A stretch of 64,000 nt of DNA from an uncultured Methylomirabilota bacterium. GTDB lineage: Bacteria > Methylomirabilota > Methylomirabilia > Methylomirabilales > 2-02-FULL-66-22. The notes under the pieces were generated by a model. The model was not told where the DNA came from and did not search any database. It saw only the letters and a program-made list of their open reading frames with translations. A program made the translations under genes and the position numbers. The stretch spans positions 512,001 through 576,000 of the forward strand of contig OY970067.1 in the NCBI GenBank assembly GCA_963705305.1, read 5' to 3'. Positions 1 through 40,187 of this stretch are shown here, piece after piece (within the stretch, counting starts at the first letter, position 1; each line of letters starts with the position of its first letter).

Positions 1-6
1 TTCCGA

Positions 7-2267: not shown

Positions 2268-2280
2268 AAAAAACCCCTGA
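1945..2280 (+). CDS. small transposon HTH protein (OrfA-like)
   Basis: GGAGGA RBS; SAQEAARQLGVSRKT..KWE HTH; ends just after an A8 run. Confidence 0.7.
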   Translation: MREPTASPHQQALARQRAQLIMQARSGVVSAQEAARQLGVSRKTDSKWERRALAAMVAALGNRGQGRSAQPHDLEKAALRRQTQELQAQLTVLQQTERLRQVLAQPDKKNP

Positions 2281-2290
2281 GGTGGCCGCG

Positions 2291-3355
2291 ATGCTGATCC
2301 CGACCTTCACCCAGCTGAAGCACGACGTGCGCTGGCCCTACGAGCGCCTCTGCCGGGTCCTGGGGGTGCCCTATAGGACCTTCCGGCGGTGGAAGCAGCG
2401 CCTGGAGCGCGGCCAGCCCGCCCGGCTCCGGCCAGGGCCCAAGAAGGTGGCCCCCCTGACCCTCGAGGAGCTGCGCGGGGAGGTAGCCCGCCTGCACCAC
2501 GGCCGCCGGCGCAGCCGAGGCGTCGGGGCGGTGTACCGGCAGTTCCACCCGCAGGTCTCCCGCCGCACGCTGCAGGCGCTGACCGCGACGCTGCGGCGGC
2601 AGCGGGCCCAGCAGCGCCAGGCCGCCTGCCGCCACATCACCTGGCACGTACCCGGCTTGGTCTGGTCCCTGGACGACGCGGAACTGGCGCGAGGGAGTTC
2701 GCCTCTCCTGCGCCTCCAGCAGGTGCAGGATCTCGCCTCGCGCTACAAGTTCCCCCCCTGGGTGGGGGAGCGGATCTTAGGAGAGACCGTGGCGCTTCGC
2801 CTGGAACAGCTCTTCGTGCAGCATGGCCCGCCGCTCGTGCTCAAGCGGGACAACGGGGGCAATCTCAATCAGCACGCGGTCGAGGAGGTGCTGGCCCGGT
2901 ACGGGGTCCTGCCACTCAACTCGCCCCCGCATTATCCGCCCGACACCGGCGGGATGGAACGCGCGGTGCGGGAACTCAAGACGCCGCTGGTGGCGAAGCT
3001 CCGCGCCAGCGGTCCGATCCCGGAGTCCCAAGTGCAGAGCTGGGCGGCCCTCTTGGCGCATGACCTGAACCATCGCCGCCGTCGCTCTCTCCAGGGGGAC
3101 GTGGCCTGCCGGGTGTTTCAGGATGCCAGGCCAGCCCTGAAGGCGTATACTCGCCGCAAGCGACGGGAGGTCTTCGAGGAGATCAATGCCCTGACCCGGA
3201 CGCTCATGGAGGCCCAGACGGATTGCACCCCCCGTCACGCCGGAACGGCCCGGCGGCTGGCGGTGGAAGCCTGGTTACAAAAACACGGGGTCATAAGCAT
3301 CACTCAGAACCACAGAGTGTTACCCATTTCCCTCAAAGAAATCGCTCATAATTAG
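2291..3355 (+). CDS. second DDE/integrase-core (rve) transposase
   Basis: WSLDD, KRDNGGN, NSPP and GMERAVRE motifs; runs into the right inverted repeat. Confidence 0.8.
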   Translation: MLIPTFTQLKHDVRWPYERLCRVLGVPYRTFRRWKQRLERGQPARLRPGPKKVAPLTLEELRGEVARLHHGRRRSRGVGAVYRQFHPQVSRRTLQALTATLRRQRAQQRQAACRHITWHVPGLVWSLDDAELARGSSPLLRLQQVQDLASRYKFPPWVGERILGETVALRLEQLFVQHGPPLVLKRDNGGNLNQHAVEEVLARYGVLPLNSPPHYPPDTGGMERAVRELKTPLVAKLRASGPIPESQVQSWAALLAHDLNHRRRRSLQGDVACRVFQDARPALKAYTRRKRREVFEEINALTRTLMEAQTDCTPRHAGTARRLAVEAWLQKHGVISITQNHRVLPISLKEIAHN

Positions 3356-3651
3356 GTTGGCCCCACAATCTTAACAAGGCCCGTCCCGTCAGCTATTGGC
3401 TTCAGCGCCGACCAGACAGTTTGCCCATCGTCAGCGTCCGATTTGTCTAAGAGAGAGTCAAGTGTAACATCGTCCAGAAGATAAGCCGTCACATTACACT
3501 GTGGATCGGAATCCACCAATAAGACTTTGTATCCAAGATCGCCAAGGGCGAACGTAAGATTAATCGTTAATGTCGTCTTACCGACACCGCCCTTATGGTT
3601 GTAAACGGTAATTCGCTTGGCGTGGTGGCGGCTCGTCTGATTCGTCTTCAT
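3352..3651 (-). pseudogene. parA: ParA/Soj-family ATPase, 3'-truncated by the transposon
   Basis: ITVYNHKGGVGKTT deviant Walker A and VLLVDSDPQCN; only ~100 aa, ending at the transposon end. Confidence 0.8.
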
Positions 3652-3655
3652 TGGG

Positions 3656-4231
3656 CTAATCTTTTGCCTCTGGGGTGGGCGTCTTTTTTGATGCACGTCG
3701 AGGACGTGCCTTTGCCATAGCAGCTTTCGCCGCCTGGCGGTCAGGCAACGCCTGTACAAAACGTTCGCCTGCCGCGCTCAACTGCTTCTTTCCTTGAGGG
3801 GCTGGCACGAGGTAACCACTCTGCATCGCGTTATTCACAGCGTAAGCCGCGTTAGAAAACTTCATCTGGGCTGCTTCGGTGTTGAGCTTGCTTATGTCGA
3901 CAGTCTCAAAGTGTGGCATGCCTTTATAGTGCGTGAGGTAGTAGCTGAGGCATGCTACCTTCTCGACATCAGACGAGGGTTGCTTATCGAGAAGAAAGTC
4001 TTTGGGGGATATTGACCGATCGGCAGAGAAGCTATCCGGGCCAATAGGGGTGGGTTGCTCGATTGTCGAAAGTCTCAGGGGTGCAGGCGCAGTGAGGGGA
4101 ATGCCTAGGAAGGCAGCAACTGCTGCCAATATTCGCTCTTGATTTGGCCGGTCTAGCTTGCGTAAATATGACAGAATACTGGTAAGAACTTCAAGGTCGT
4201 CTGGGGACATCTGGGCACTGTCTGTCGACAT
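3656..4231 (-). CDS. hypothetical protein, probable winged-helix C-terminal domain, upstream of parA
   Basis: Protein-like ORF with GAGGTG RBS; 4-nt gap to parA. Confidence 0.65.
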   Translation of the reverse strand: MSTDSAQMSPDDLEVLTSILSYLRKLDRPNQERILAAVAAFLGIPLTAPAPLRLSTIEQPTPIGPDSFSADRSISPKDFLLDKQPSSDVEKVACLSYYLTHYKGMPHFETVDISKLNTEAAQMKFSNAAYAVNNAMQSGYLVPAPQGKKQLSAAGERFVQALPDRQAAKAAMAKARPRRASKKTPTPEAKD

Positions 4232-4720
4232 GCTTCTCACCTCAGCCGTAAGACGGCACGTCTGTTTGGGAGGACGCCATGGCAAAAAGAAAGGGAAATT
4301 ATTATGGATTTTCCCCCCACGGACGGTTCGAGGAGAGCCTAAGACGTTCTGGAGCGTACTTCAAGGCACGCGAGAAAGTCAAGGAAGATTCGGTGACCGA
4401 AATTCTTGAATCCACTCCCTCGCGCTGCCGCAACTCCCTGTTGGTAACTCCGGTCGTAATGCGGGACGTTGCCAACTTCGTCAACTTGTGGCGGTAACGA
4501 CAACCCCGCACCCACCACTCCCTCACCCTTCGGGGGCATCGCCCCCCAAGAACACAAGAGCCCTCGGGGATCCGGAGATCCACCGGGGGCCGTCAGGTTC
4601 ACACGCCAGGAGCTTTCCGGTCGGCATCTTCGCCTCCTTCAGGCCGCCTAGCTGGGCATCGAGATTATTCGCGCAAGACCCTACGTCTCATCAGGGGGTC
4701 TAGTCAAGATGAAATGAGCG

Positions 4721-4749
4721 GGGACGGGGGAGAGACTCGAACCCTCATG
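4721..4749 (-). repeat. degenerate tRNA-Leu 3' fragment (att relic)
   Basis: GGGACGGGGGAGAGACTCGAACCCTCATG matches the att copy at 4865-4893 at 25/29 positions. Confidence 0.6.
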
Positions 4750-4862
4750 AATGCGGGCCGTCCTTGAAGTCGCAGAAGAATTGACACAGTTCTAGCACAA
4801 TCGGGCAGTTTCGCAGGTCTGGACAAGACTGGCAGAAAGCAGATAACATATTGAATCTAATG

Positions 4863-4917
4863 TGGTGCCGGGGGAGGGAGTCGAACCCTCATGGGGCAAG
4901 CCCCGCGGGATTTTGAG
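4863..4917 (-). repeat. att site: duplicated 3' part of tRNA-Leu(CAA), including CCA
   Basis: Matches 40101-40155 except one T-loop base and the terminal A; 5 nt from the integrase stop. Confidence 0.95.
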
Positions 4918-4922
4918 GATCG

Positions 4923-5966
4923 TCAACTTCCCACATTTTCCGACACCTTACATTGGTATTGTACCACTCTTGTACCGAATCCTTCCATCCTTTCGAGCTG
5001 CTTCCGCTGATAGTCGGGATGGAGGTGCGCATAGAGCTTTGTCACGGTCGGTGAGGTGTGGCCCATGCAGCGGGCAATCACCTCCAAGTCCACACCCGAC
5101 ATCGCGGCGTAGGAGCCGAAGGTGTGGCGGAGTCTGTGGAAGGTGTAGCGCGGGATGCCGGCCCACTTGCAGCGCCACTGGAGACGGTCCAAGAGCGCGT
5201 GGCGACTGGTCGCCCACCAGAAGACCTTTTCAGGGGCGAAGGTGGCCCTCGGAATCTCCTGAAGTGCCACGCGGGCATTTTTGAGAAGGGGCACGATTCG
5301 CTGCTTCCGCCCCTTGCCCCGCTTGACCAGAACGTACCCGTCGCGCAGATTGACATCCTCCCATTTGAGGCTGATGACTTCCGTGATGCGGAGGCCCGTC
5401 CAGACGGCAAACCGGAAGATGGGCCTGTCGCGCCCCGAGACCTTCAGGAGCTTCTCGAACTCCTCGAACGGGATGAAGGCCGCCGGGTCGTCCTGCTTCA
5501 CCGGGAGGGACGGCCGCTCGACCTCCTTCGCCGGGTTCGCGGCCAGGTACCGGAGCTTCACCGCCCACTTCAGGCAGTCGTGGATGGCGGCCAGGTCCTG
5601 CCGGACCGTGGAGGGCTTGATGCCCGCCTTCAGCCTCGAATCGCGGTACGCCTCAATGACCTCGGCGGTGGGTAGCCGCTCGAACGGCATCAGCTTGAGG
5701 GCTCGCATCACCCGCTCGCGGTAGCTGTCGGTGCGCCAGGGCTTCTTCGCCTCATAGATCTCCTGGAACTCCTTGAACGAGGCGTCGAGCAGGACGCCGT
5801 ACTCCTTGGCGTAGCGCTCGCGGATCACCTTATCGCGGAAGAACTCGGCCTCCTGCTTGGTCCTGAACTGCTTCTGGTGGCGCCGGCCCGTCGGATCGGT
5901 CCAGTCCACACGCCAGGCCGTCCGGCGCTCACCCCTCCATTTCCAGGTGCGTTTCCACAGGTTCAT
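4923..5966 (-). CDS. int: tyrosine recombinase / phage-type integrase
   Basis: TGLRITE, K, HRLRH, MGHT and LYAH catalytic residues; N-terminal arm-binding-like region; adjacent to att. Confidence 0.95.
   Translation of the reverse strand: MNLWKRTWKWRGERRTAWRVDWTDPTGRRHQKQFRTKQEAEFFRDKVIRERYAKEYGVLLDASFKEFQEIYEAKKPWRTDSYRERVMRALKLMPFERLPTAEVIEAYRDSRLKAGIKPSTVRQDLAAIHDCLKWAVKLRYLAANPAKEVERPSLPVKQDDPAAFIPFEEFEKLLKVSGRDRPIFRFAVWTGLRITEVISLKWEDVNLRDGYVLVKRGKGRKQRIVPLLKNARVALQEIPRATFAPEKVFWWATSRHALLDRLQWRCKWAGIPRYTFHRLRHTFGSYAAMSGVDLEVIARCMGHTSPTVTKLYAHLHPDYQRKQLERMEGFGTRVVQYQCKVSENVGS
4959..4980 (+). repeat. putative integrase arm-binding repeats (2 x 11 bp, TTGTACC core)
   Basis: TTGTACCACTC-TTGTACCGAAT; the same motif is tripled at the other island end. 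Confidence 0.7.
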
Positions 5967-6028
5967 GTCGGATCACCTCCTTTCGTCTCGTCTCGCCTTC
6001 CAGTCTGGCTGTCCCTGGCGGACGGTCC

Positions 6029-6463
6029 CTACGATTTGCGCTTCTCGCCTCGCCGGAGGATCGCGAGAAAGGCGGATGGACGGACAACCTGGACCCCTCC
6101 GTACGCCTTCACCGCCAGGAGATCTCTGTCGCCGGATACCACGTACTGCGCCCGCCCCTCGATTGCCGCCGCGAGGAACTTGTCATCGGCAGGATCACGG
6201 CTCACCTTCAGAGTCGTGTCTCCCCGAACGAGGATGCTTTCCTCACCGAGGGCTTCAAGGAGCGAGACGATCTCCTCCTCGGACATCCAGCGGAACTTCT
6301 GAAGCTTCTCATAGAGAAGCACCCGCCCGATCTCTTCCAAGATCGGCGGCGAGAGCACCAACTCGAAAGTGCCGCGCTGCCAGGCCCGGAGGAGGCGACC
6401 TTCGTTACCGCCGCGAATGAGCGTGGCCGAGACGACCACATTGGTATCGAGGACCACCCTCAT
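6029..6463 (-). CDS. PIN-domain (VapC-like) toxin
   Basis: MRVVLDTNVVVSA...DPADDKFL..A....A.YVVSGDRDLL. Confidence 0.92.
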   Translation of the reverse strand: MRVVLDTNVVVSATLIRGGNEGRLLRAWQRGTFELVLSPPILEEIGRVLLYEKLQKFRWMSEEEIVSLLEALGEESILVRGDTTLKVSRDPADDKFLAAAIEGRAQYVVSGDRDLLAVKAYGGVQVVRPSAFLAILRRGEKRKS

Positions 6464-6747
6464 GCTTTGACCGGGGGCGTTGCGCGGCGGGCCGCCGCCA
6501 CGGCCTCGCGGACGAGCCGCCGGATCTCAAGCGACGGGACCCCCCGAGTGCGCGCCTGGACGCGGTCCAGGAGGGCCGCGAGCTGCTCCCGCGTGGCTTG
6601 GCGTCGGACCTCACTCGTGTCGATATACAGGCGCAGGGCTTCCCGAACCAGTTCCGACTTGGTCCGATTCTCCTGCACCGCGACGCGCTCCGCGCTCTTG
6701 AGGAGCTGGGGCGGCACTGAAATTGTCATCAGTTTTCGTAGGGCCAT
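6460..6747 (-). CDS. ribbon-helix-helix (CopG) antitoxin
   Basis: TISVPPQL...RTKSELVREALRLY; 4-nt overlap with the toxin; TTGACA upstream at ~6810. Confidence 0.85.
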   Translation of the reverse strand: MALRKLMTISVPPQLLKSAERVAVQENRTKSELVREALRLYIDTSEVRRQATREQLAALLDRVQARTRGVPSLEIRRLVREAVAAARRATPPVKA

Positions 6748-6920
6748 GCGGTCTCCCCCTCTCTTCTTGTAATACATTGTATGAACATCTTACCGCCGGC
6801 GCATAGGCATGTCAAGAGGGCTCCATGACTTCCTTTCGCTGATTCCGCCTTCGCGAGATTTCGTCATCGGGCTTCAAAGGCGGCTCAGGCCGGAGCCCGA
6901 AGACCCCGGCCTGAGTGGTC

Positions 6921-7154
6921 CTAGCGGAGGAAGGGAGACCTCGTGCCGATCGCGCCGGTCCCGGCCATCTGCCGCTTCACCCAGGCCTCGACATCGGCCA
7001 GGTTGAAGCGGTACCGCCGGCCGATCCGGAGGTACGGCAGGCCTTTGAGCTTTCCGGCCTTGAGGAGTTCCCAAAGGCGGTTGCCCGGCCTGCGACCACT
7101 GGAGGTAATTCCGAGAAACTCCGCCACCTCCGCCAGCCCAACGAGTTGGCCCAT
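6921..7154 (-). CDS. xis: excisionase-like HTH (HTH_17) protein
   Basis: LAEVAEFLGI...LPYLRIGRRYRF...VEAWV; near the integrase. Confidence 0.75.
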   Translation of the reverse strand: MGQLVGLAEVAEFLGITSSGRRPGNRLWELLKAGKLKGLPYLRIGRRYRFNLADVEAWVKRQMAGTGAIGTRSPFLR

Positions 7155-7624
7155 GGCCACCTCCGTCGCCGGAGGCGAACTCAGGGTCAACTGCGGCCCC
7201 GCCGCAGCCATCTCTCGGTGAGCGGTGCCGGCGAGACCAGAGTCAGGGGAGCCGCCGGATATCCGGCGGGTGTCCCCGACTCACATCCCAGATACTACTG
7301 GGGAAGAAGGGAGTCAAGGGAAAAGCGACTGACTTTCAGCGTTCGTCGGGGTTGGTTGGAGTGAATGTCAAACGACGAATGAGAGGCATCTTTGACGGGA
7401 CAGCGACCGAGCACGATTATCCACCTGATCAGATACGCACTACACTTTCTCGTACACCTGAGCGACTGCTTTCAGGAGGTTAGGCTTACCTGAGTGAAAG
7501 GATATGCCTGCAACGGAGAATCGCTCGTTGGCCAGCGAGGACAGCGCCCAGTGGCTTCACCCGACCACACTTGCTCGGACAAACCACCCGAGACACTCCT
7601 AATCTTGGAAACTATGCAGGGTCT

Positions 7625-8641
7625 TCATTCAAATTCTAATCCCCCCAAAAGACGCTGCTGCTTTTCAATCTCATACAAGAGTGCAATGAAGATAGCGTAT
7701 GGGTGAAGGAGAGTAGTCAAGGAAGCTTTAGCCTCGATATCCTCACGAAAATACTTGGCCCGATTCGTGTCGATCGTCAAAATCCCAATGATCCTCCGAT
7801 CAGGATCCAGTCTCGGCTTCCCCCTGATAATGGGGTAGCTGAACATAGACTTAAAGTTCGCCGCTTGCCCCGCGTAAAGCTCCATCCACCGCCTGGTGCT
7901 GGGTGGCTCCTTTTTCATCTCTGCTGGAACGTCCTGGATAACTTCCAACTGTTCCTGTCTGAATGCAAGAATCGCCGTCGCTCTAGGATGATCCTCCTCC
8001 TTAATATATTCAGAACCAGGGCTTGGATACATCGCTGGGGGGTAGTAGAAGTTTGTTCGCTTAAGCACAACGTGTCCGCCAGTCTCCGATACTGGCTCAT
8101 AGAAGGTGCTCTTGAAGTAATTGTGCCTGCTCCTCATCTCTCCTGTTGCAGGTGGGTCAGCCGCGAATGTATCAGATAATTTACCCATCAGTCGCCTGAC
8201 AAGCAAATTGACATCTAGCCCTCGATCAGGAGAAGAGGATAGTTCCGCCTTCGTATCCGTCCGTGCCTCTAAACCGGAGTTTGTAGCATGGACGGCTGCC
8301 AAGCTGTCTTTTATCACATCAACGAGACCGTCCAATGCTCGCGACAGTAACATGTACTCTCGTTGTGCTTCGGCTAATTCGCGTTGAGTCTTCTCATGCT
8401 CATATGCCTGCTTCCAAGTCCTTGCTTCTCCTCTTTGAGCCTTCAGCCCTTCATATAGAACTGGGAGGCCGAATAATAGGAGTACATAGCCTGAGACAAA
8501 CACCGCCCAGACGGGCTTCGAAATATCCTGCTCATGAAAAAGATATTCGCCGGCCACTCCTAGGAAAGTAAAGATTCCAAGTATGAACGCTCGCCCACCT
8601 GCCCTTAGAAGCAGAGTAGATTCCAGACTTATCATTGACAC
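7625..8641 (-). CDS. two-TM + coiled-coil + GAF-like domain protein
   Basis: Two N-terminal hydrophobic helices; C-terminal FKSMFSYPI...IIGILTIDT...YF typical of GAF folds; GGAGG RBS; low GC. Confidence 0.65.
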   Translation of the reverse strand: MSMISLESTLLLRAGGRAFILGIFTFLGVAGEYLFHEQDISKPVWAVFVSGYVLLLFGLPVLYEGLKAQRGEARTWKQAYEHEKTQRELAEAQREYMLLSRALDGLVDVIKDSLAAVHATNSGLEARTDTKAELSSSPDRGLDVNLLVRRLMGKLSDTFAADPPATGEMRSRHNYFKSTFYEPVSETGGHVVLKRTNFYYPPAMYPSPGSEYIKEEDHPRATAILAFRQEQLEVIQDVPAEMKKEPPSTRRWMELYAGQAANFKSMFSYPIIRGKPRLDPDRRIIGILTIDTNRAKYFREDIEAKASLTTLLHPYAIFIALLYEIEKQQRLLGGLEFE

Positions 8642-8654
8642 AACCTCCGTCCAT

Positions 8655-9833
8655 TCACCGGATTTTCGCCAGAAGCTCCTCTTTCTCCTCGGCGGGCAAG
8701 AATGCTGCAGTAACCGCGTTCATCGTGACTGCATGTATATCCTGTTTACTAAAGCCAAAATGCTGGACTAGAATGGTGAATTCCTTTGACAGGGTGGTAT
8801 TGCATACAGAAGGATCATCTGTGTTGACTGTCACCACTATGCCGGCATCGTACAGTGTACGAACTGGATGCGACGAAATACTTTGCACAGCGGAAGTCAA
8901 AATATTCGACGTAGGACATAACTCCAGAGGAATCTTCTTCTCTCGAAGAGTACTCATGAGCTCCGGACTCCGAACGGCTGAGAGTCCGTGCCCGATCCTA
9001 TCCGCGGCAATCACTTCAATGGCTTCCTTGATATTTTCCGGTCCAGAGAACTCCCCTGCATGAATTGTCACTGGAAAACCCAGCTGCTTAACCTGGTGAA
9101 AGAAGTCAGCAAACAGCCGCGGCGGATGCCTCTTTTCCTTCCCAGCTAAGTCGAAGCCGACAATGCAATCCTTCTTCATATGCATGACATGGTTCAACAG
9201 CCTCCCGTAGTAGTGCCGTCGCGTAACCTCCGGCACGTACGGAAGATAGTGCCTGGTTAGACTAAGCACCATGCGAACCTTAATCGGCAAGTTGTCCTCG
9301 GCTCGACTGATCCCCATTTCGACGCCCTTGGTGAACTCCTCCAAAGACAAACCCCCATTCAGAACCCCAAAGGGGGACTGCCGGAATTCGACATATAAGA
9401 CGTTGTCTCTTGACGCGTCCTCCGCCGCCTCATAGATGACCCTGGCAATCACTTCTGCATCGACAAATAAATGATTGAGAATGTCTCTCCACGGCCGGAA
9501 AAATTCGGCTAAGCCATTGACGGGCTTGTCAACCTGCATGTAGGTCGTCAGCTGTGTTAGGTTTTCTGCAGGCAATCTTATATTACGTTCCCTAGCGATT
9601 TCTAATACACTTGTAGGGCGAATCGCGCCTGTAAGGTGTCGGTGAAGATCAATTTTGGGAAGGCTCCTCACTTCATCCTCAGAAATCAGGCGCCTCCCGA
9701 AGTTTAGTTGGGGCTGACTATTGTGATTCCGCATACGTTCAAAAACCACTAGGGGTAGCTCTCTGATCGGATGGAGTTTTTCCCTGGGTCGTGGCCATCC
9801 CACGTCAGAGGAGTTAAGCCCATTCTCACTCAC
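8655..9833 (-). CDS. add: adenosine deaminase family protein (start uncertain)
   Basis: PKIDLHRHLTG, GFDLAG.E, TIHAGE, RIGHG, LELCPTSN and NTDDP all intact. Confidence 0.92.
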   Translation of the reverse strand: MSENGLNSSDVGWPRPREKLHPIRELPLVVFERMRNHNSQPQLNFGRRLISEDEVRSLPKIDLHRHLTGAIRPTSVLEIARERNIRLPAENLTQLTTYMQVDKPVNGLAEFFRPWRDILNHLFVDAEVIARVIYEAAEDASRDNVLYVEFRQSPFGVLNGGLSLEEFTKGVEMGISRAEDNLPIKVRMVLSLTRHYLPYVPEVTRRHYYGRLLNHVMHMKKDCIVGFDLAGKEKRHPPRLFADFFHQVKQLGFPVTIHAGEFSGPENIKEAIEVIAADRIGHGLSAVRSPELMSTLREKKIPLELCPTSNILTSAVQSISSHPVRTLYDAGIVVTVNTDDPSVCNTTLSKEFTILVQHFGFSKQDIHAVTMNAVTAAFLPAEEKEELLAKIR

Positions 9834-10467
9834 TTAGAGCAGTCATTACACCTGGGTGCGCTCGATTGTAACCGTAGCTTGGTGGTCACTCTTGATTGCA
9901 GCGACGATGGGAAACGCTCGGTCGATCCAGCTGGGGGAACAGCGATATACGAGGTTCGTTGGTCGGTAGACGAGAAAGGGCTGGAACGTAGGAGCTGCTG
10001 ATTTTCAGGGAGGTGAAACCAGAATAACTCCGCGTCGCCCATGGGTGGCATCTCCCCGGCTTCTCTCGAGGGAAGAAGCCAAACCTCTCGGTTCGGGTCA
10101 AAGCATAGGCATAAGAATATCGAGATCTGCCGGTCTGTCAAGCCGAAAGTTCAGGTCTACCCCGAATCTGTTGCAGCTTCGAATTGGGACCTCGTGATAG
10201 GTTGCGGGAGTCCGACTTCTTTGGACACTTTCCCGAGTCTGTCGCAGGAGCCGCACGGGACTGTTCCGGTTCTAGGCCGCCGGAGGCGATTGGGCGCCCC
10301 GAAGGCACGATTCGAGAGTGCCGGGGGGCCTTCCTGTCCTCCCGACGATCCGAGCAATCGATTCCGCGTAAACTGCTTGGTGTAACGGGGGCAATTTGCT
10401 CAAACACTTCTTCGAAAGGAACCTCTTGCCTCAATCGAATTTCCATTGCGGGCATCTCACCTTTCAT
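9830..10467 (-). pseudogene. multiply frameshifted/degraded coding region upstream of add
   Basis: Protein-like segments alternate between frames (MEIRLRQEVPFEEVFEQIA / PLHQAVYAESIARIVG / LGKVSKEVGLPQP); same low GC as add. Confidence 0.35.
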
Positions 10468-10604
10468 GCTACAAGCTCTCCCATTTTCTCCTTAATACAG
10501 CGGCGCTACGTTTTGTCCCTCCTCCTCGTCATTCTAAGCGTCTTCTCTCATGTCTTTGATTCCGCTGGCTGGCACTTGAGCGGTCCGGGAAGTGCCGCGT
10601 CTTA

Positions 10605-10885
10605 TCACTGGAACTGGCACTGGTTTCCTTCCTTTCGGAGGCGGCCTGCTAGCGGCATATTAAGTGCCACCGCCACCGCATCGAACATGTTCTCGTGGTG
10701 CGCCTGTTTCCATTTCCGGTCCTGCGTCAGATAGACCTTGAGCTCCGGGTACCTGGCCACCACGGCCTTCGCCACGTCGGCCTTGCTCGCGTGGCCGTTG
10801 CCGGTGATGTGTTTCTTGACCCTGCTCGGATTTGGGCTGACGACCTGAAGGCCCTTGCATCGTCCCAGGGTCCGAATCTCACCGT
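10605..10885 (-). pseudogene. C-terminal half of a RuvC-like protein (no start codon)
   Basis: Hand translation EIRTLGRCKGLQVVSPNPSRVKKHITGNGHASKADVAKAVVARYPELKVYL...NMFDAVAVAL; VKK..TG.G.A.K and DA.A.AL are RuvC hallmarks. Confidence 0.7.
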
Positions 10886-10948
10886 TTGAACTCCCAGGCC
10901 GAATCTTACTCTTGCGCTGGCTCCTAGGCCCATGCTATAAGCTCCGTG

Positions 10949-10972
10949 GCGCCGCTTTACAAAGCGACGCTA
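10949..10972 (+). repeat. putative serine-recombinase site, left (dyad around AC core)
   Basis: GCGCCGCTTT-AC-AAAGCGACGC-TA; 22/24 inverted match to 12640-12663. Confidence 0.75.
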
Positions 10973-11006
10973 CCCCCCCTGGTTTTCCACACCCCCCGTC
11001 CCGGCA

Positions 11007-11035
11007 TTGACAGTTTTCGAATCATCCCCTATGCT
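11007..11035 (+). promoter_or_regulatory. sigma70 promoter of the second TA operon
   Basis: TTGACA-17nt-TATGCT. Confidence 0.6.
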
Positions 11036-11087
11036 GAAGGTGGTCAACTAATTGATTGATTAGTCATCTCTCCCCGGAGGGAAGACC

Positions 11088-11393
11088 ATGCCCAAAGCGG
11101 CCAGTGCACCCATGACCAAGAATCTTCCTGCCTTCATCGCCCGGACCCAGTTCGGGCAAATCCTGGAGCGGGTCTCCCAACGGGGGGACCGCTTTGTGGT
11201 GACCAAGAAGGGCGAAGCCAAGGCCGTCATCCTCGGCGTCGAGGACTTCCTGCGGTCCGTGGTCAAGACCCCGAAGTCCCTCGCCGCGCTCCAGGCGCAG
11301 GCGAAAAAGCGCGGGAGCGACCGCCTCACCCTTGAGGAGATCGAGGCCGAGATCGCCGAAGTTCGCCGGGCCAAGACCGCCGCCAAAGCATGA
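11088..11393 (+). CDS. Phd/YefM family antitoxin
   Basis: ARTQFGQILERV....RFVVTKKGEAKAVIL. Confidence 0.88.
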   Translation: MPKAASAPMTKNLPAFIARTQFGQILERVSQRGDRFVVTKKGEAKAVILGVEDFLRSVVKTPKSLAALQAQAKKRGSDRLTLEEIEAEIAEVRRAKTAAKA

Positions 11394-11800
11394 CCCTCCG
11401 GGTGGTCTATGATACCAACGTGATCGTCTCGGCTGCCCTCAAGCCCGGCAGCTTGCCCGCCTCACTCGTCAGCCTGGCCATGACCAGACGAGTGAGGCTT
11501 TTTGTTTCTCTGGCGATTCTCGACGAGTACGCGGCCGTCCTCAGACGGCCTAAATTTCGCCTCGACCCCATACGGATTGACGCCTTCCTGCGGGATCTCC
11601 ACAAAGCCGCCGTCACTGTCCGCCCCTCAGAACGGGTGCGCGAGGCGCCCGACGAGGCCGACAATCGCTTCCTGGAGTGCGCCCTCGCGGCTCAGGCTGA
11701 CTACCTCGTGACCGGCAATAAGAAACACTTCCCGCGGCCGGCCTTTGAACGGACGAAGGTTGTGAGCCCCGCCGAGTTCGCCTTGCTCGTGGTTCGGTAG
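11390..11800 (+). CDS. PIN-domain toxin
   Basis: LRVVYDTNVIVSA...DEADNRFLECA..A.ADYLVTGN.KHF; ATGA overlap with the antitoxin. Confidence 0.92.
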   Translation: MTLRVVYDTNVIVSAALKPGSLPASLVSLAMTRRVRLFVSLAILDEYAAVLRRPKFRLDPIRIDAFLRDLHKAAVTVRPSERVREAPDEADNRFLECALAAQADYLVTGNKKHFPRPAFERTKVVSPAEFALLVVR

Positions 11801-11844
11801 GAGACCTCCGCTCATCCGGCCCTCGGAGCAACCCCCGGCCGCCC

Positions 11845-12609
11845 TTAATCTGACTGCCCCCACAGCTCGAGGCTTTTATTCTGCCCCCTGGCCTCGCCGT
11901 AGCGGAAGACCCCGTCCTGATAGAACCGCGCGCGGCCCAGAATCGCCGCCACCTGCCGCTGGGTCCAGGGTTTCCCGTTCCGCCGCGCCCACCCCGTCTC
12001 GGTCAGGATCTGCGCGATACGCGGGCCACTCTGGCCCCGGCCGGCGAGCGTAAAGATCGTGCGAACGATCTCCGCCTCCGTGGGGTCCACCTCCAGCCCG
12101 TTCCCGTTCCGCCGGTACCCGTAGGGGGTATTGCCTCCCGGTGGGAGCCCGCGGCGTACCCGCTCCTGGCGGCCCTTCCAGAGCCGCTCGATGATCTCCT
12201 TCCGGTTCTCCTCGGCGATGGCGCCCCGGATCTGCCGGATGAGCACGTCCTTCCGGTCTTTCCCGTTGTAGTTCGGCATGTCGGCGATGAGGATGTCCAC
12301 GCCTAACCGTTCGAATTCATAGAACAGGTTCTCGGCCAGCCGGAGATCCCGCGAGAGCCGGTCCAGGGAGGGGAGGACCACCGCCCCGATCCGGCCCCGC
12401 TGGCAGTCCCGGAGGAGCCGCCGGAGGCCCGGCCGATTCTCCGCGATCCCGCTCTCGGCCTCGTCCTTGTAGAACCGCTCAATGAAGATCCCCTGCCGCT
12501 CGGCAAAGAGGGTCACGTCCCGGATCTGGATATCGATGCCGTAGCCCCGCCGCTTCTGCTCCAGGGTGGAGACGCGGCAGTAGGCCACCGTGTGCTTTTT
12601 CCGCTCCAT
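11845..12609 (-). CDS. serine recombinase (resolvase domain + short recombinase domain)
   Basis: AYCRVST catalytic Ser, SLDRLSR, PYGY; GGAGG RBS. Confidence 0.92.
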   Translation of the reverse strand: MERKKHTVAYCRVSTLEQKRRGYGIDIQIRDVTLFAERQGIFIERFYKDEAESGIAENRPGLRRLLRDCQRGRIGAVVLPSLDRLSRDLRLAENLFYEFERLGVDILIADMPNYNGKDRKDVLIRQIRGAIAEENRKEIIERLWKGRQERVRRGLPPGGNTPYGYRRNGNGLEVDPTEAEIVRTIFTLAGRGQSGPRIAQILTETGWARRNGKPWTQRQVAAILGRARFYQDGVFRYGEARGQNKSLELWGQSD

Positions 12610-12639
12610 GCCTCCTCAGAATCATGTTTCGACCTGGCC

Positions 12640-12663
12640 TAGCGCCTCTTTGTAAAGCGGCGC
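12640..12663 (-). repeat. putative serine-recombinase site, right
   Basis: Reverse complement GCGCCGCTTT-AC-AAAGAGGCGC-TA. Confidence 0.75.
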
Positions 12664-12761
12664 TCGACCCGCTTCTCACTCTGCCAGAGGCAGCAGGCAT
12701 GTCAAGTCCGCGGGACCTAGGACCGGAACGGGAACCTCATTCCTCAAGGAGGGCATGTGTC

Positions 12762-13502
12762 ATGAACCTTCGCGTAGTCCTCGTCGGCGCACTCATGGTG
12801 GTGGTGATGATCATCCTGCCGGCTCCCGCCCGGTGTCAAGTCCGGCCGTGGGATGTGTCCCTGGGTGCTTTCGTGGGCGGCGCCCTGCCCTTCGATACCG
12901 ACGTCAAAAGCAGCGGCCAGACCCGGGGCCTCCCGTTCTCGTTCACGGCGAAAGATCTCACTCTGAAGGACTCGGTCTCCTTCGGCGGGAAGCTCACCGG
13001 CTGGTGGACGGGCCTGCGCCCCCGGACCCATCTGGATTTCGGGGCGGGGCTGGATATCACCCGGTTCTACCCGGACATCAAGGCGCAGACGGCCTCCATT
13101 TCGGGGACCATCGGCGGCCTCCCCGTGTCGGGCGTGAGCGCCCCCTGGCCCAAGGTGGGGGTGAGCAGCACGCTCGTCGGGCTCAACGCCCTGGTCCGGT
13201 GGCCCCTGGGGGTCACGCCTGAACTGCCGAATGGCCGATGGTACCCCTACCTTGGCCTGGGCGGGGGGGCGGACATTGCCCGGGCCACCCTGGAGGGGAG
13301 CAGTGACACGGATACCGCCGCCGCACTGCAGGTCCTGGGTGGGGTCACGCTCTTTCTGACCCGGCACCTGGCCCTGTTTGCGGAGTACAAGTTCACCCAC
13401 GCGAGCCACTCCTTCGCGTTCAGCGGCCCGGGCTACCAGGAGACGGACAAGGGTACGGGGGACGTGAATCATCTCGTGGGCGGCCTGGCCTGGCACTTCT
13501 GA
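12762..13502 (+). CDS. outer-membrane beta-barrel protein (OmpA-TM/opacity-like)
   Basis: Signal peptide, PYLGLGGG, LFAEYKF, C-terminal LAWHF aromatic end. Confidence 0.8.
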   Translation: MNLRVVLVGALMVVVMIILPAPARCQVRPWDVSLGAFVGGALPFDTDVKSSGQTRGLPFSFTAKDLTLKDSVSFGGKLTGWWTGLRPRTHLDFGAGLDITRFYPDIKAQTASISGTIGGLPVSGVSAPWPKVGVSSTLVGLNALVRWPLGVTPELPNGRWYPYLGLGGGADIARATLEGSSDTDTAAALQVLGGVTLFLTRHLALFAEYKFTHASHSFAFSGPGYQETDKGTGDVNHLVGGLAWHF

Positions 13503-13538
13503 GAGAAGGGCCGGGGTTGCGGCCTAGGAGGAAGGACG

Positions 13539-13958
13539 ATGCGAACGCTTCTGCTCGTGGTCGTGCTGCTAACGGGGGTCCTGCGCATCGGGGGCATCGC
13601 CGCCGCGCAAACAGCGGGAGGCACGACGGCGCCCCCGCCCCTGGCCGGGGTCTGGAAGGGCACCGCCGCCGGGGGGAGCGCCCTCCAGAACGTCGTGCTG
13701 ACCATCACGGAGACGGGGCAGGTCTCCTACGGGGTGGACGCGGCCTGGGCGCCTCAGATTGCGCTCAACGGCGCGGCCGAGGCCACCGTGGTCGCGCTGA
13801 CGGCCGACACCCTGGTCTTCACGTACCTGTCGCAGCTGCCGAACGGCTCCACGAACACCATTCGGGTGGAGCTGCACCTCGTGGCCGGGCAGCTCGTCGG
13901 CAAACGGGCGGGCGGGGGCGAGGCGCCGCGGTACCTCACCCTGACGCGCACTCCCTGA
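13539..13958 (+). CDS. secreted hypothetical protein (beta-rich)
   Basis: AGGAGG RBS, signal peptide, LAGVWKG motif. Confidence 0.65.
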   Translation: MRTLLLVVVLLTGVLRIGGIAAAQTAGGTTAPPPLAGVWKGTAAGGSALQNVVLTITETGQVSYGVDAAWAPQIALNGAAEATVVALTADTLVFTYLSQLPNGSTNTIRVELHLVAGQLVGKRAGGGEAPRYLTLTRTP

Positions 13959-14004
13959 GGGGGCGCCGGGCTCGCCGCGCCACCCGCGGCACGGAGGGAC
14001 AGCA

Positions 14005-14508
14005 ATGAGACCATGCAGGGGCCGATTGTGGCTCATCACCAGCGTGGCGCTGGTCCTGGCAGGCTGTGCGTCCAGCGGGGTCCTGACCGGCGCCGTCCCG
14101 CCCGCCGGGGGCCTGGGCCGGTTCAAGACGGTCTCCGTCACGGTCGAGTCCCGGCTCGCCGACACCCAGGAGGAGGCGACACGGTTGCAGGCGCTGATCG
14201 TCGCGGGCTTGCAGAAACCGGGACGCTGGCAGGTGGCCGATCAGAACCCGGACCTCGTGCTGACGGCCACCCTGACCGATGTCTATAAAGTCCCGCGGGC
14301 CGCCCGGCTCATCGGGGGCGCGCTGGCCGGTCAGGCCTCCGTCGACGCGGACGTGGTGCTCCGGGACGCGCACGGCGCCGAGGTGAGCCGCTTCCACGTG
14401 ACCGGGAAATCCTCCGGCGGGACGATCTTCGCGGGGACCACGGACCAAGCCCTGGCGCGGGCGGCGGAGCAGGTGGTCGCGTTCATCGAACAGAACGGCG
14501 GCGCGTAA
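14005..14508 (+). CDS. lipoprotein, DUF4410-like
   Basis: LAGC lipobox; ARLIGGALAG motif. Confidence 0.7.
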   Translation: MRPCRGRLWLITSVALVLAGCASSGVLTGAVPPAGGLGRFKTVSVTVESRLADTQEEATRLQALIVAGLQKPGRWQVADQNPDLVLTATLTDVYKVPRAARLIGGALAGQASVDADVVLRDAHGAEVSRFHVTGKSSGGTIFAGTTDQALARAAEQVVAFIEQNGGA

Positions 14509-16023
14509 GCCGCGTTCGGATGTAGGAAAACTTTGCCACCCGCACGGGGGGGAGGGAGCGCGGAGGAACGTCGTTGCCGGGCAGGACTCTCGGGGAGCTG
14601 TTTATGCGGGGAGCCGGATCGAAGGAAGGCACGGTGAACGCTGGAGAGGACAGGCGACGGTTTCCCCGGTGTGCGCGGGTCGGGCCCCCGACAGAACGGG
14701 GAGACGCGGGGGCCAGTCAGCCGCTGCTGATCAACGTGAGCCCCGGCGGGGTGTGTCTGTGGGTGCGCGAGCCGCCCCCCACGGGCCGGCCGTACACGCT
14801 GCATTGGCAGCGGGAGGGGCGGGAGACCGTGGTCCCGCTCCAGCTCGTCTGGCTGCGGCCGTGCCGGCCGGTGCGGGGCACAGAGCCCGACCAGGCCCCC
14901 CAGGGGTGGCTCGCCGGCTTTGCCGTCGCGCCGGCCCCGCCCGGGGCCCCGCGTTCCACGCATCCGCCGGATCTCCCGGTGAGCGGGCCGCTGGAGGTCG
15001 TGTCCCCCGTCGAGCCCGACCGTCCCGCGTCGCCCAACGAGGCGTCCGTTGCGGGGACATACATGATATTCCCCGAGGCGGCCGTCCCCGCGATCCGCGC
15101 GGTGGCGGAGAGTCTCCTCCCTATCCTGGCGCGCCATTTTACGGAGGCCCGCCTGGTCCTCACCCGGGACCGCCTGGAAATTGTGGCCCCCTTTCGGCCG
15201 CTGGCGGAAGGGAGGAGACCCCAGGACCGGGGGCCGGGTCGGCGAGTCCTCCCGGCGGGGACCGAGACCCTCCGCGTGGCCCCCCCGGAGGCGGCCCAGC
15301 CCGCGGCGGCCGGTCGCCTCGCCCGAGCCCGGGGGCGAGGCCGCCCTGGGCGCGTGCTCCTGGCGTCGGCGGGGCTGCTGGCCGTGGTGCTGCTGGCCTG
15401 GCAGATGCTTCCCCCTCTCCGGCAGAGCGATCCGGCCCCCGTCGCCGCGACGGGCGTCCGGCCCCTCCACCGGGCCCTGCCTCCGTGGGCCGCACCCCTG
15501 GCGCCCTCGTCGCCGGAGACGGTGGACCAGTGGAGGGACATCCAGGGCGCGTTCGGCTTGCCCAACGCCCTGATGGCCCCGCTGCTGCGGGTGCTGCAGG
15601 CCAATGATCGATATCCCTCCAGCCACATGCTCCACGATCTGACGGCGTACCCCATGGAGGTGGGACGGGCCTTTCGCATTGTGGCGGGGGCCGGCGCCAC
15701 GGGGCGTCCGGCGCTCGGCCCCCTCACCAAGGACCTGGGGATGCGCCTGGTGACCGGCGCCCGGTTCCCAGACGAACCCGCGGGCGACCGGCATTTGCTC
15801 CTGGACGCGAAGCTGGACGAGAATGCCGTGGTCTTGGCGATTCTTGAGCTGTTGTCGCGGCGGCACGACGACCCGGCGGTGCAGCAGGTCCTCACCGCCC
15901 TCCGGGGCCCGTCGCCCTCTCCCCCGCAGCCGAGGGGCCGTGGGGACCCTGGAGACGCAGCCGACCCCACGCAGCATTAATCATGGACACTCACGCGTTC
16001 ATCGAACAGAACAGCGGCGCGTA
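14478..16023 (+). repeat. 30-bp direct repeats (14478-14507 and 15994-16023) flanking the PilZ gene
   Basis: CGCGTTCATCGAACAGAAC(G/A)GCGGCGCGTA, 29/30 identical. Confidence 0.8.
14634..15980 (+). CDS. PilZ-domain membrane protein
   Basis: DRRRFPR and NVSPGG c-di-GMP-binding motifs; central TM helix. Confidence 0.65.
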   Translation: MNAGEDRRRFPRCARVGPPTERGDAGASQPLLINVSPGGVCLWVREPPPTGRPYTLHWQREGRETVVPLQLVWLRPCRPVRGTEPDQAPQGWLAGFAVAPAPPGAPRSTHPPDLPVSGPLEVVSPVEPDRPASPNEASVAGTYMIFPEAAVPAIRAVAESLLPILARHFTEARLVLTRDRLEIVAPFRPLAEGRRPQDRGPGRRVLPAGTETLRVAPPEAAQPAAAGRLARARGRGRPGRVLLASAGLLAVVLLAWQMLPPLRQSDPAPVAATGVRPLHRALPPWAAPLAPSSPETVDQWRDIQGAFGLPNALMAPLLRVLQANDRYPSSHMLHDLTAYPMEVGRAFRIVAGAGATGRPALGPLTKDLGMRLVTGARFPDEPAGDRHLLLDAKLDENAVVLAILELLSRRHDDPAVQQVLTALRGPSPSPPQPRGRGDPGDAADPTQH

Positions 16024-16209
16024 CGCGTCGGAGGATCGGGATCGCCCCCCGACGGGCGGATGCAGGCCCGCATCTCCGGGGGTCCGGCCATCGGGGAGTC
16101 CCTGAACCAGATCGCCGCCGTGCGGACCGCGATGTCGTACGGGGGACTCTTCCTGAGACGTGCCTGGGGAGCACGGGGCTCAGACGAACGAGCACGGGAG
16201 GATGCCATC

Positions 16210-16386
16210 GTGGCAGAGCTGCTTGTTGTTGGTCTCTGTGTCCCCCTGATCTCCGGCCTCCTCGCCGCGAGGATCGCGGGCGGCGAGGGGCGGAACCCGA
16301 CCCTGTGGTTCGTCATCGGCGCGATCATCCCTATCGTGGCGGTGGCCATCACGTACCTCGTCGCACGAAGAGGAAGGACATCATGA
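16210..16386 (+). CDS. small two-TM membrane protein
   Basis: GGAGG RBS; GRNP.LWF..G motif; ATGA overlap with the next gene. Confidence 0.55.
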   Translation: MAELLVVGLCVPLISGLLAARIAGGEGRNPTLWFVIGAIIPIVAVAITYLVARRGRTS

Positions 16387-17489
16387 ACCGCGTCGTGAAG
16401 ATTTCCGCGTGGACCCTGGCAGCCCTCGCGCTGTCGTGGGTTGTCATCCGGTTCGGCGACTTGCTCTTCGGCTGGGCGCTGTACGGCTGGTTCTTCCGCC
16501 GGATCCAAGGCGTGGGCGTGCTCCCCAACGCCCTCGCCTCGGCCGCCGCCGTCTGGTGCGTCGCCGCGGTCATCATCGCGGGACCGACGGCGTTGCTCTC
16601 CCTGTTCGCCTTCGGCGCACGGCGGCACCGAGCGGTCCTCGCCATCGCGGGCGCCGTGTCGCTCTGGATCGTGTCGCTCTACCTCCTCGCCGGGCTGCGC
16701 CCGGCCGACTACTTCTTCAACCCGGAGAGCGGAGAGACGAACTACTCCTATGGCACGGACCCGACCGGCGCCATCGCGCTCTTCCCGAAGGAGTACCGCT
16801 TCAACCCGCTGACCGGTGCGAAGCTGGCGCCTCTCGATGCCGCCACCGGTGAGGCATACCGCAGGCAACAGGGCGTTCGGGAAGCACAACTGAAGCAGGC
16901 CGAGGTGCTTCGCCAGGAACAAGCCCAGCTCGCGACCGCCCAGGCGGAACTCCACCGGCAGCAAGCGGCGCTCCGCGACCAGCAGGACACGCTTGCCCAA
17001 CGGGAACGGGCGGTTGCCGCGAGAGCCGAGGAGGAAAAAACACGCGCCGGCACGCCCGCCCCGCACACCACAATTCCCGCGACCCCCTCGGAACCATCGG
17101 ACCGCGTGGGGCCCGCCCTCGAGGTGACGCCACCGACGACCATCACCTTCAACCCTGGGGTTGTGTGTCGGGGAGACGAGCGGAAAACCCTGAACTACGC
17201 CGTCGACATCGACAAAGAAACCATCGTCGTTCCTCTGACGGAGGGGTGCTACGGGCCGCTCGTGATCCTCCCGGATACGAATCGCTGGCGGCCCTACTGG
17301 AAGTTTCGGAATGCCACCACGGCGGCAGGATGGGTCGCATTCTTGTCGTCACAGAAAGAGACCGATCCGATCGGCCTGCCCACGAAAAATCCAGGGAGGC
17401 TCTCGACGGGATTCGGCATGGGGTGGTATGGGATCTACGCCTTTCGAGTCCAGGGCCACGGGACCGTGCGCCTGGAAGTCAACAACTAG
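16383..17489 (+). CDS. multi-TM + coiled-coil hypothetical protein
   Basis: Three to four hydrophobic helices, Gln-rich coiled coil, soluble C-terminal domain. Confidence 0.7.
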   Translation: MNRVVKISAWTLAALALSWVVIRFGDLLFGWALYGWFFRRIQGVGVLPNALASAAAVWCVAAVIIAGPTALLSLFAFGARRHRAVLAIAGAVSLWIVSLYLLAGLRPADYFFNPESGETNYSYGTDPTGAIALFPKEYRFNPLTGAKLAPLDAATGEAYRRQQGVREAQLKQAEVLRQEQAQLATAQAELHRQQAALRDQQDTLAQRERAVAARAEEEKTRAGTPAPHTTIPATPSEPSDRVGPALEVTPPTTITFNPGVVCRGDERKTLNYAVDIDKETIVVPLTEGCYGPLVILPDTNRWRPYWKFRNATTAAGWVAFLSSQKETDPIGLPTKNPGRLSTGFGMGWYGIYAFRVQGHGTVRLEVNN

Positions 17490-17736
17490 CCCGGCAGCGA
17501 AACCCAGGGCGCGTTTCACTGGAACAAGGATGAAAAAACCCTCCTGGGGAGACGGGGGGTTGCGTGGCGACGCGCCCCACACCATCTGTGCCGGAGGCTT
17601 GTCTCTTGCATGCGAGTCGGCGCAAACCGCCCAGAGGCAACTGTGCTGGCACGTTGTGCCGGCGTTCGTGAGGTGGTGGCCTTGTACGCGGGGGCGCAGT
17701 AGGACCACGCCAGGATCCTCTGCGTCGTTCGCTTTG

Positions 17737-40101: not shown

Positions 40102-40187
40102 GGTGCCGGGGGAGGGAATCGAACCCTCATGGGGCAAGCCCCGCGGGATTTTGAGTCCCGTGCGTCTACCAGTTTCACCACCCCGGC
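40102..40187 (-). tRNA. tRNA-Leu(CAA)
   Basis: GCCGGGG acceptor stem, CGGGA-CTCAAAA-TCCCG anticodon arm, long variable arm, GTTCGATTC; TTGACA promoter at 40226-40231. Confidence 0.97.

Follow-up and report, generated by a model that had tools for sequence, protein, structure and literature searches.

An adenosine deaminase paired with a GAF-domain protein on an integrative element: a candidate two-gene anti-phage signalling module

We analysed a stretch of 64,000 nucleotides (the window) from an uncultured Methylomirabilota bacterium, corresponding to C1:512001-576000 of genome G000, which is a single contig of 5.65 Mb with a guanine-plus-cytosine (GC) content of about 70%. It contains two adjacent genes coding for an adenosine deaminase (ADA) and for a protein with two transmembrane helices (2TM), a helical stalk, and a GAF domain. 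We propose that this ADA-GAF pair may be a two-gene anti-phage signalling module borne on a mobile element, one that would follow the logic of the Kongming system with different parts on the receiving side; whether this is the right explanation we hold to be an even call. The proposal draws on the recurrence of the pair in distant bacteria, on the separate clade that the paired deaminases form, on the exchange of effector modules around the GAF domain, and on the location of the pair within an integrative element.

The two genes and their products

Both genes lie on the minus strand, the ADA gene upstream of the GAF gene, with the following features (coordinates are those of the window).

8655..9833, minus strand: adenosine deaminase of the GAF-paired clade (Pfam PF00962, TIGR01430, tree)
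8644..8648, minus strand: ribosome-binding site GGAGG, 8 nt before ATG 8635 and right after the ADA stop
7625..8635, minus strand: 2TM/coiled-coil/GAF protein of 336 aa, start ATG 8635, alternative start GTG 8641
8453..8611, minus strand: two hydrophobic helices at the N-terminus (about residues 9-33 and 41-61) that may anchor the protein in the membrane or act as its effector (Kyte-Doolittle, model)
8252..8452, minus strand: long helical stalk, residues 62-128, continuous with the second transmembrane helix (model)
7637..8212, minus strand: GAF domain, residues about 142-333 (model, fold matches)
10114..10141, minus strand: promoter-like site, TTGACA, 16-nt spacer, TATTCT, 10/12 matches (consensus scan)

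The longest open reading frame (ORF) of the ADA gene codes for 392 aa from GTG 9833, and a product of 359 aa would start at ATG 9734 (M34). The latter is the likelier start, because the HxH motif then falls at residue 30, in line with its position (27-38) in the 14 further members of the clade described below; from GTG 9833 the motif falls at residue 63. The protein matches the Pfam family A_deaminase (PF00962) at 5.7e-89, and the original prediction was right to call it catalytically intact, since all the metal and catalytic residues (H64, H66, H258, E261, H282, and D339) are kept, and these are invariant across 129 aligned ADAs. Its N-terminal extension is at most 55 aa long, and it has no CARF domain. 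The same genome carries a second ADA at C1:1465820-1466767. A tblastn search of the plasmid collection with the window ADA returned solely housekeeping add genes on large replicons.

The ADA gene ends with a stop codon at 8655-8657. The 13-nt gap between the two genes given in the original prediction holds for a GAF gene starting at GTG 8641 and becomes 19 nt for the better-placed ATG 8635. The promoter-like site precedes the ADA ORF by about 280 nt; the scan returned 6 sites against 3.0 expected. Among the sequencing data sets listed as holding the cassette, none was from RNA, and those from DNA came from a single study and had a small share. Two small ORFs (9830-10141 and 10138-10467) had been taken into the predicted span (7625..10467); neither matches a known family or recurs in the related loci, and we dismiss them as probably not genes.

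In the partner protein, the Kyte-Doolittle scan marked two hydrophobic 19-mers, at residues 9-27 (weak, 1.53) and 42-60 (2.21). An AlphaFold2 model built from a 50-sequence alignment (predicted local distance difference test score, pLDDT, 91.2; predicted template modelling score, pTM, 0.81) has a helix at residues 4-34, an unbroken helix at 40-128, and an alpha/beta domain at about 142-333; a fold computed from the single sequence (pLDDT 37) was discarded in its favour. A Foldseek search with the model gave 112 matches at E<=0.001, the top ones being all GAF domains (1f5m, fRMsr, 2qyb, PDE6, and phytochromes, E 4e-6 to 1e-4). Alignment by VIA-align to 5hl6, a GAF sensor protein, gave a Z of 16.8 and a root mean square deviation of 2.2 A over 157/158 residues. 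The neighbours in the ESM Atlas were clusters of similar length automatically named "GAF domain-containing protein" (score 0.97), while the window protein itself had no match among the Pfam, NCBIfam, or PADLOC 2.0 profiles. The C-terminal domain is thus modelled as a true GAF fold, and neither the Pfam scan nor the model revealed a DNA-binding, kinase, or cyclase output. The hydrophobic scan, the AlphaFold2 model, and the fold match agree with the original description of a protein with two transmembrane helices, a coiled coil, and a GAF-like C-terminal domain lacking an enzymatic output.

Thirteen residues are nearly invariant in the family of this protein (K175, Y198, P199, P204, W250, Q257, Y261, S263, D289, T290, Y295, F296, and P312). 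The most conserved stretch, residues 289-299 (about 7739-7771), reads D-T-N-R, two residues, Y-F, one residue, E, which we take to recall the NKFDE signature of cyclic-nucleotide-binding GAF domains. A complex prediction for ADA with residues 66-336 of the GAF protein scored 0.00, which counts neither for nor against binding.

Recurrence of the pair, the deaminase clade, and effector exchange

Pattern scans confirmed 3 loci with a related GAF protein among 62 pattern matches in genome_contigs and 9 among 52 in metagenome_contigs, and genome searches added those of G049 and G494; two loci (L005 and L006) duplicate L002, with identical tblastn figures. Twelve distinct loci besides the window were thus available, and nine, the window included, were informative in that both sides of the GAF gene could be judged. 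An ADA gene was the direct neighbour of the GAF gene in seven of the nine (the window, L002, L003, L004, L010, L013, and L024), with the ADA first in five and the GAF gene first in two (L013 and L024). In L002 and L003 the ADA is followed by a TIR-GAF gene and in L004 by a 2TM-GAF gene; in L010 the C-terminus of an ADA stands at the contig edge before the GAF gene, and in L024 (G494) 5 nt separate the GAF gene from the ADA. The GAF proteins of the ADA-paired loci are 28-40% identical to that of the window; one of the pairs has a GAF fragment of only 78 aa. The hosts include two Acidobacteriota lineages, an Actinomycetota metagenome-assembled genome (MAG), and the window's own phylum, at least three phyla in all. 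Since the six genomes checked hold just 1-2 PF00962 genes each, chance adjacency would be negligible. ADA-paired members are spread over most of the major branches in the tree of the GAF family, which makes the association an old one.

In four loci (L007, L008, L009, and L011) the contig ends on one side. L007 and L009 are uninformative, and L008 and L011 could carry an ADA on the side that is missing; L013, the tree neighbour of L011, has one downstream. An ORF resembling nucleoside 2-deoxyribosyltransferase lies just downstream of the GAF gene in L008 (472-951). No conserved third gene was seen: the small ORFs of the window are unmatched, and what follows the pair in L002 bears no relation to what follows it in L003. 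The L004 pair has an IS110 transposase on one side and a Type IIG/ISP restriction-methylase on the other (PADLOC 1.8e-247; coordinates 5326-8406, 73-1311), and the neighbours of the L024 pair (1517-2527 and 3748-4761) match capP (7e-7) and mad2 (4.4e-8) weakly.

We then placed the paired deaminases in a tree of 66 rows (LG+G4, several rows long-branched) made up of 6 paired ADAs, four further ADAs of host genomes (the second copies in G000, G251, and G252 and the only copy in G049), and 56 database sequences drawn from the 119 nearest relatives (the first 24 and one in three thereafter). The 6 paired ADAs and 9 database proteins of unknown gene context formed one clade (n=15) with a Shimodaira-Hasegawa-like approximate likelihood ratio test (SH-aLRT) value of 100 in a quick run and support of 100/100 in a careful one. 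Outside this clade fall the four further ADAs of the host genomes and 47 others; the window deaminase is therefore separated from the other ADA encoded in G000, and the grouping with housekeeping Add that would have spoken against the original prediction was not found.

All 15 clade members have T, L, S, or V at position 68 (T68 in the window), while 112 of the 114 other ADAs have E or D there. This position aligns with Asp19 of mouse ADA (2ada) and with the Asp of two bacterial Add structures. Further conserved columns changed in the clade are K114 (to P), R120 (N/S), R285 (S/A), Q312 (L/I), and V167 (F). According to PMC12669630, Asp19 of ADA hydrogen-bonds the 5'- and 3'-hydroxyls of adenosine, and the ATP-deaminating TaqCad1 has Gly264, which touches ATP, in place of Asp19 and Asn549 in place of Asp296, which sets Cad1 apart from canonical ADAs. 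Judged from the alignment, the paired clade is distinct from housekeeping Add and has lost the acidic residue that binds the ribose. Because it is this residue that is lost, we infer that the substrate of the paired enzymes is a nucleotide, modified at the ribose 5' or 3',5' position.

A cyclic substrate would also fit an alternative in which the pair is a defence module and ADA is its off-switch or guard, removing an adenine nucleotide (cyclic AMP, cAMP, or an adenylate made by phage or host) that activates the GAF effector until infection overwhelms or inhibits the deaminase: the loss of a residue binding the 5'- and 3'-hydroxyls is compatible with a 3',5'-cyclic compound as well. GAF domains are classical binders of cyclic nucleotides, and GAFs with bound cAMP or cGMP, 5w10 and PDE6 among them, are found among the fold matches. 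These share the fold of the window domain at a Z of 12.8-13.5, but its best matches lie elsewhere, among small sensor or fRMsr-type GAFs (Z 15-16.8). Such a module would, moreover, need a source of the signal outside the pair of degrader and effector, and host-encoded signal degraders such as the ring nucleases of type III CRISPR systems are optional accessories, not a constant partner. KomA, the sole characterised defence ADA with a separate sensor, makes the signal. A precedent for the enzyme activity is CadD of Leptospira, an ADA-family cAMP deaminase that quenches cAMP signalling, cited in PMC4398509. On balance we hold a quenching role for ADA to be unlikely.

The N-terminal part of the GAF protein is not constant. 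L002 and L003 carry TIR_2 (Pfam 1.7e-6 and 1.5e-7) instead of the 2TM module, and residues 14-260 of the L002 protein match the PADLOC model "TIR-TM" at 2.1e-56 (positions 3-251 of 293). Two further members, P0042 and P0056, lack a hydrophobic segment and match the PADLOC CBASS model "Effector TIR" with their N-termini at 7.5e-9; P0042 also matches Nuc_deoxyrib_tr weakly. In the tree of the GAF family (74 rows, quick IQ-TREE), the TIR forms are nested among the 2TM forms. The N-terminal effector module is thus swapped, 2TM against TIR, around a constant GAF domain. A fixed ligand-binding domain with exchangeable killing modules is the receptor-effector architecture of CBASS, Pycsar, Thoeris, and type III CRISPR systems, and because 2TM and TIR are exchanged while GAF and ADA stay constant, the GAF protein would be a receptor-effector rather than a pure sensor. 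As a separate observation, a single in-frame TAG interrupts the TIR-GAF gene of L003 (5298-6642, in an Acidobacteriota MAG), which is thus a pseudogene or the product of an assembly error.

The same exchange bears on the possibility that ADA is itself the effector of a defence module, acting by depletion of ATP or dATP or by flooding with ITP or dITP, while the GAF protein senses another infection cue and acts beside or upstream of it. Cad1 and RdrB of RADAR are described as using ADA domains as effectors. The window ADA (residues 25-391) matches the PADLOC profile CARF_ADA at 9.6e-59, over the ADA part of that model only (positions 233-593 of 605), and it shares with Cad1 the loss of the Asp19 equivalent. 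Against this stand the killing modules that the partner already possesses, the lack of a regulatory domain in ADA beyond the short N-terminal extension, a sequence nearer to canonical Add than to Cad1, and an NCBIfam RdrB score of 33.8 bits, confined to residues 331-356, where the cut-off is 800. We regard an effector role of ADA as less probable again than a quenching one. The PADLOC profiles had been named as a check in the original prediction; they recognised the ADA and the TIR variants but, as said, not the GAF protein of the window.

To delimit the GAF family, we scanned 1.84 billion cluster representatives with HMMER and obtained 74 proteins at E<=1e-3 (52 at <=1e-10 and 9 at <=1e-30), two of which are fragments of the window protein or of a near-identical one. 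Members are usually 300-370 aa long and follow the same plan: of the 55 that reach 290 aa, 51 begin with one or more strongly hydrophobic 19-mers, two of them in 33 cases. Of 62 members scanned, 20 matched Pfam GAF or GAF_2 weakly (E<=1e-3), and 10 of the 20 reached a gathering score. No fused form of 666-2000 aa was found, which is weak evidence, and the sole match of a word-indexed protein search was the window's own GAF protein.

The family occurs in 2 of 251 genomes of the window's phylum, G000 included, and in none of the 20 other genomes of the same genus (completeness 68-100%). In samples of 401 genomes each, it was found in 3 Acidobacteriota genomes, 2 of them credible and one of the 3 being the genome on which the sample was centred, and in a single Actinomycetota genome, again the centre genome itself (0 of the 400 others). 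The third Acidobacteriota match, in G458 (E 2.2e-6), was not counted, as it covered the stalk positions 10-118 only, within an 869-aa frame. The family is rare, patchy, accessory, and mobile in its distribution.

The integrative element and its other cargo

The pair lies in a region of the window with these further features.

4864..4917, strand not assigned: left direct repeat, 54 nt that copy the 3' end portion of tRNA-Leu(CAA), 53/54 identical to 40102-40155
40102..40187, minus strand: tRNA-Leu(CAA) gene (ARAGORN), whose 3' 54 nt (40102-40155) form the right direct repeat
4923..5966, minus strand: tyrosine integrase (Pfam Phage_integrase 1.7e-27)
6029..6777, minus strand: RHH antitoxin and PIN toxin (Pfam RHH_1 1.5e-05, PIN_3 7.4e-23)
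6921..7211, minus strand: excisionase-like HTH_17 protein (Pfam HTH_17 1.6e-08)
10608..10934, minus strand: RuvC-like remnant without a start, bordering the cassette on its upstream side (Pfam RuvC 6.6e-4, short of the gathering score)
11088..11800, plus strand: Phd/YefM antitoxin and PIN toxin (Pfam PhdYeFM_antitox 2.2e-09, PIN_3 5.9e-25)
11845..12609: serine recombinase (Pfam scan)

The direct repeats bound an element of 35.2 kb (4864-40155) with the integrase at its left end. The element also carries a Replic_Relax protein (38899-40137) beside the tRNA gene, a second HTH_17 gene (31665-32051), and two genes for TrwB/TraG-like coupling proteins (29509-30711 and 32225-33961). From the 54-nt repeats, the integrase, and the relaxase-like and coupling-protein-like genes it follows that the ADA-GAF pair is cargo of an integrative element in tRNA-Leu, an element that is probably mobilisable or conjugative. 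Over the cassette (about 7600-10200) the GC content is 0.44-0.55, compared with 0.65-0.73 in the flanks; a low-GC cassette next to an integrase and an excisionase gene and between two toxin-antitoxin modules had been predicted, and the integrase, the HTH_17 protein, and the RHH/PIN and Phd/PIN modules were all found.

Further cargo consists of a HerA-like DUF87 ATPase (22255-23748), a 383-aa ORF without a Pfam match that overlaps the start of the ATPase gene (23745-24896), a DUF6731 protein (25682-26563), and a PD-(D/E)XK nuclease (27278-28054); the stretch 22255-28054 could be another defence module. A fuller RuvC-like ORF than the remnant beside the cassette is present at 17737-18291 (minus strand, 1.1e-4), adjoining an HTH_31 gene. 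The Phd/PIN module and the serine recombinase are flanked by a 24-nt inverted repeat (10949-10972 and 12640-12663, 92% complementary), as if they were a small mobile unit. At 4720-4749, 144 nt to the left of the first repeat, stands a more degenerate copy of the tRNA 3' end (28/39 bases), perhaps left behind by a previous integration event. IS481/rve-type transposase genes (381-2267 and 2033-3355) and a truncated ParA-like ORF (3352-3759) adjoin the left repeat on its outer side. The Rfam search found no family within window positions 1-20000.

Comparison with known systems and proposed mechanism

The closest parallel is Kongming. According to its description (10.1101/2024.12.20.629578), KomA (PF00962) deaminates dAMP and dADP, a phage deoxynucleoside monophosphate (dNMP) kinase and the host NDK complete the deoxyinosine triphosphate (dITP), and dITP is bound by a sensor-effector complex with which KomA makes no physical contact; the survey reported there is centred on the HAM1 sensor, not on the deaminase, and mentions no GAF partner. 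The two systems have in common a stand-alone PF00962 deaminase beside a separate ligand-sensing effector, the lack of a dedicated infection sensor, the location on mobile DNA, and a base-modified purine nucleotide as the messenger, proposed in our case. The likeness of KomA to the window ADA is at the level of the PF00962 family only. Kongming has three genes (KomA, HAM1-like KomB, and SIR2 KomC), whereas the pair has two, the GAF receptor and the 2TM or TIR module being fused in one protein, and no HAM1-like (PF01725) or SIR2 match was found among the window ORFs from about 260 to 45,300 or in the flanks of L002, L003, L004, and L024.

Cad1/CAAD has a homologous ADA domain in which the Asp19 equivalent is likewise lost (Gly264, T68 in the window). 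It differs in its CARF domain, absent here, and in Asn549 of TaqCad1, where the window ADA keeps Asp at position 340. In Cad1 the ADA is the effector, while here it is more likely the maker of a signal, and no cas genes were seen among the window ORFs scanned (about 260-45,300). The likeness to RADAR lies in an enzyme of the adenosine deaminase family that makes inosine nucleotides in phage defence. The window ADA, at 359-392 aa, is far below the RdrB cut-off, and no gene for an RdrA-like ATPase adjoins the cassette, its neighbours being the excisionase gene, the toxin-antitoxin modules, and the recombinases. RdrB has about 850 aa and forms giant complexes. With the receptor-effectors of CBASS, Pycsar, Thoeris, and type III CRISPR systems, the GAF protein shares the fusion of a small-molecule-binding domain to an interchangeable 2TM or TIR module; the binding domain, however, is GAF and not SAVED, STING, CARF, SLOG/Macro, or a cNMP-binding domain, and the partner enzyme is a deaminase. 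Neither a CD-NTase nor a pyrimidine cyclase nor a Cas10 gene was found in the window cassette or in the related loci with Pfam and PADLOC. The scans for HAM1, SIR2, RdrA, CARF, and cyclase genes thus bear out the earlier statement that the known partners are absent, and, judged by its domain content, the ADA-GAF pair is set apart from Kongming, RADAR, Cad1, and CBASS/Pycsar, each of which has required partners or domains that the pair does not present.

The mechanism that we propose would run as follows. ADA would deaminate a phosphorylated adenosine, most likely, rather than adenosine itself, with dAMP or dADP, ATP or dATP, and a cyclic AMP as the candidates. The resulting inosine-type nucleotide would build up in infected cells only, and a phage nucleotide kinase may finish the pathway as it does in Kongming. 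The cytoplasmic GAF domain of the second protein would bind this nucleotide and the stalk would relay the signal to the N-terminal module, whereupon the two transmembrane helices would disrupt the membrane (in the window) or the TIR domain would destroy NAD+ (in the relatives), so that the infected cell would die or arrest before the phage cycle is completed, an abortive infection. Inferred in this scheme are the defence role, the part of ADA as the maker, and the nature of the ligand, of the trigger, and of the killing.

A number of results weigh against this proposal. The window ADA passes TIGR01430, the equivalog model of the housekeeping adenosine deaminase (292.8 bits, cut-off 216.55), its nearest solved structures are canonical bacterial Add (6n91, 2e-53) ahead of Cad1 (9ebt and 9c67, about 1e-26), and apart from position 68 and a handful of columns the active site of the clade is canonical. 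Two informative loci lack the deaminase: L012, which codes for a 421-aa form identical to P0056, has none on either visible side, and L016 (G049), a distant member matched over its C-terminal part only, has none nearby. In L011, which is cut 225 nt past the GAF gene, the upstream neighbour at 54 nt is an adenylosuccinate-synthetase-like gene (2-970). Among the five loci with long flanks, a defence-island context, which the original prediction had named as a check along with the recurrence of the pair, is clear in two, namely the window and L004, and weak in L024; L002 and L003 are surrounded by housekeeping and metabolic genes. The GAF family was not found in the phage, plasmid, and viral-contig collections (33 pattern matches in the last, none confirmed). 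Since inosine monophosphate (IMP) belongs to normal metabolism, a rarer species would have to serve as the signal, and the sequence gives no sign of what ties signalling to infection.

Some of these results are what one would expect of a pair that is not immune at all, namely an accessory pair for purine salvage or purine sensing, in which a membrane GAF sensor would regulate or report on the levels of adenosine and inosine and which would be found on mobile DNA by chance. The match to the housekeeping equivalog, the metabolic surroundings of L002 and L003, and the purine-biosynthesis-like neighbour in L011 suit it, and many GAF proteins are ordinary sensors. Yet G000, G251, and G252 already own a separate housekeeping-type ADA, the family has the rare and patchy distribution given above (2/251, 0/20, 2 credible of 401, and 1/401), the TIR variants match models of defence effectors, the DNA-binding, kinase, or cyclase output is missing, and the pair has a foreign GC content and sits in an integrative element. 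We consider this the least probable of the three alternatives; the probability left over from them and from the proposed signalling module goes to something that we have not considered.

The interpretation put forward originally, a nucleotide-signalling defence system, is supported, in that the results on the fold of the second protein, on the pairing, and on the grouping of the deaminase all went in its favour. No description of a defence system made of ADA and a GAF protein was found in the full texts searched, among which subscription journals are mostly absent, nor was one of a GAF fold as an immune receptor in the literature searched. To our knowledge, Kongming is the sole system that signals infection by a base-modified, not a cyclic, nucleotide. 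That the ADA-GAF pair represents a second, independent lineage of such signalling, with a GAF reader firing 2TM or TIR modules, seems to us slightly short of an even chance.

If this is true, deaminated purine nucleotides would be a recurrent currency of immunity, a general principle reaching beyond Kongming, and GAF would be a new receptor fold for bacterial nucleotide immunity. The pair would also offer a minimal two-gene model of how a family of metabolic enzymes is recruited to immunity, and the lost Asp19 equivalent would serve as a marker by which to tell immune from housekeeping ADAs, both of which are now annotated "adenosine deaminase".

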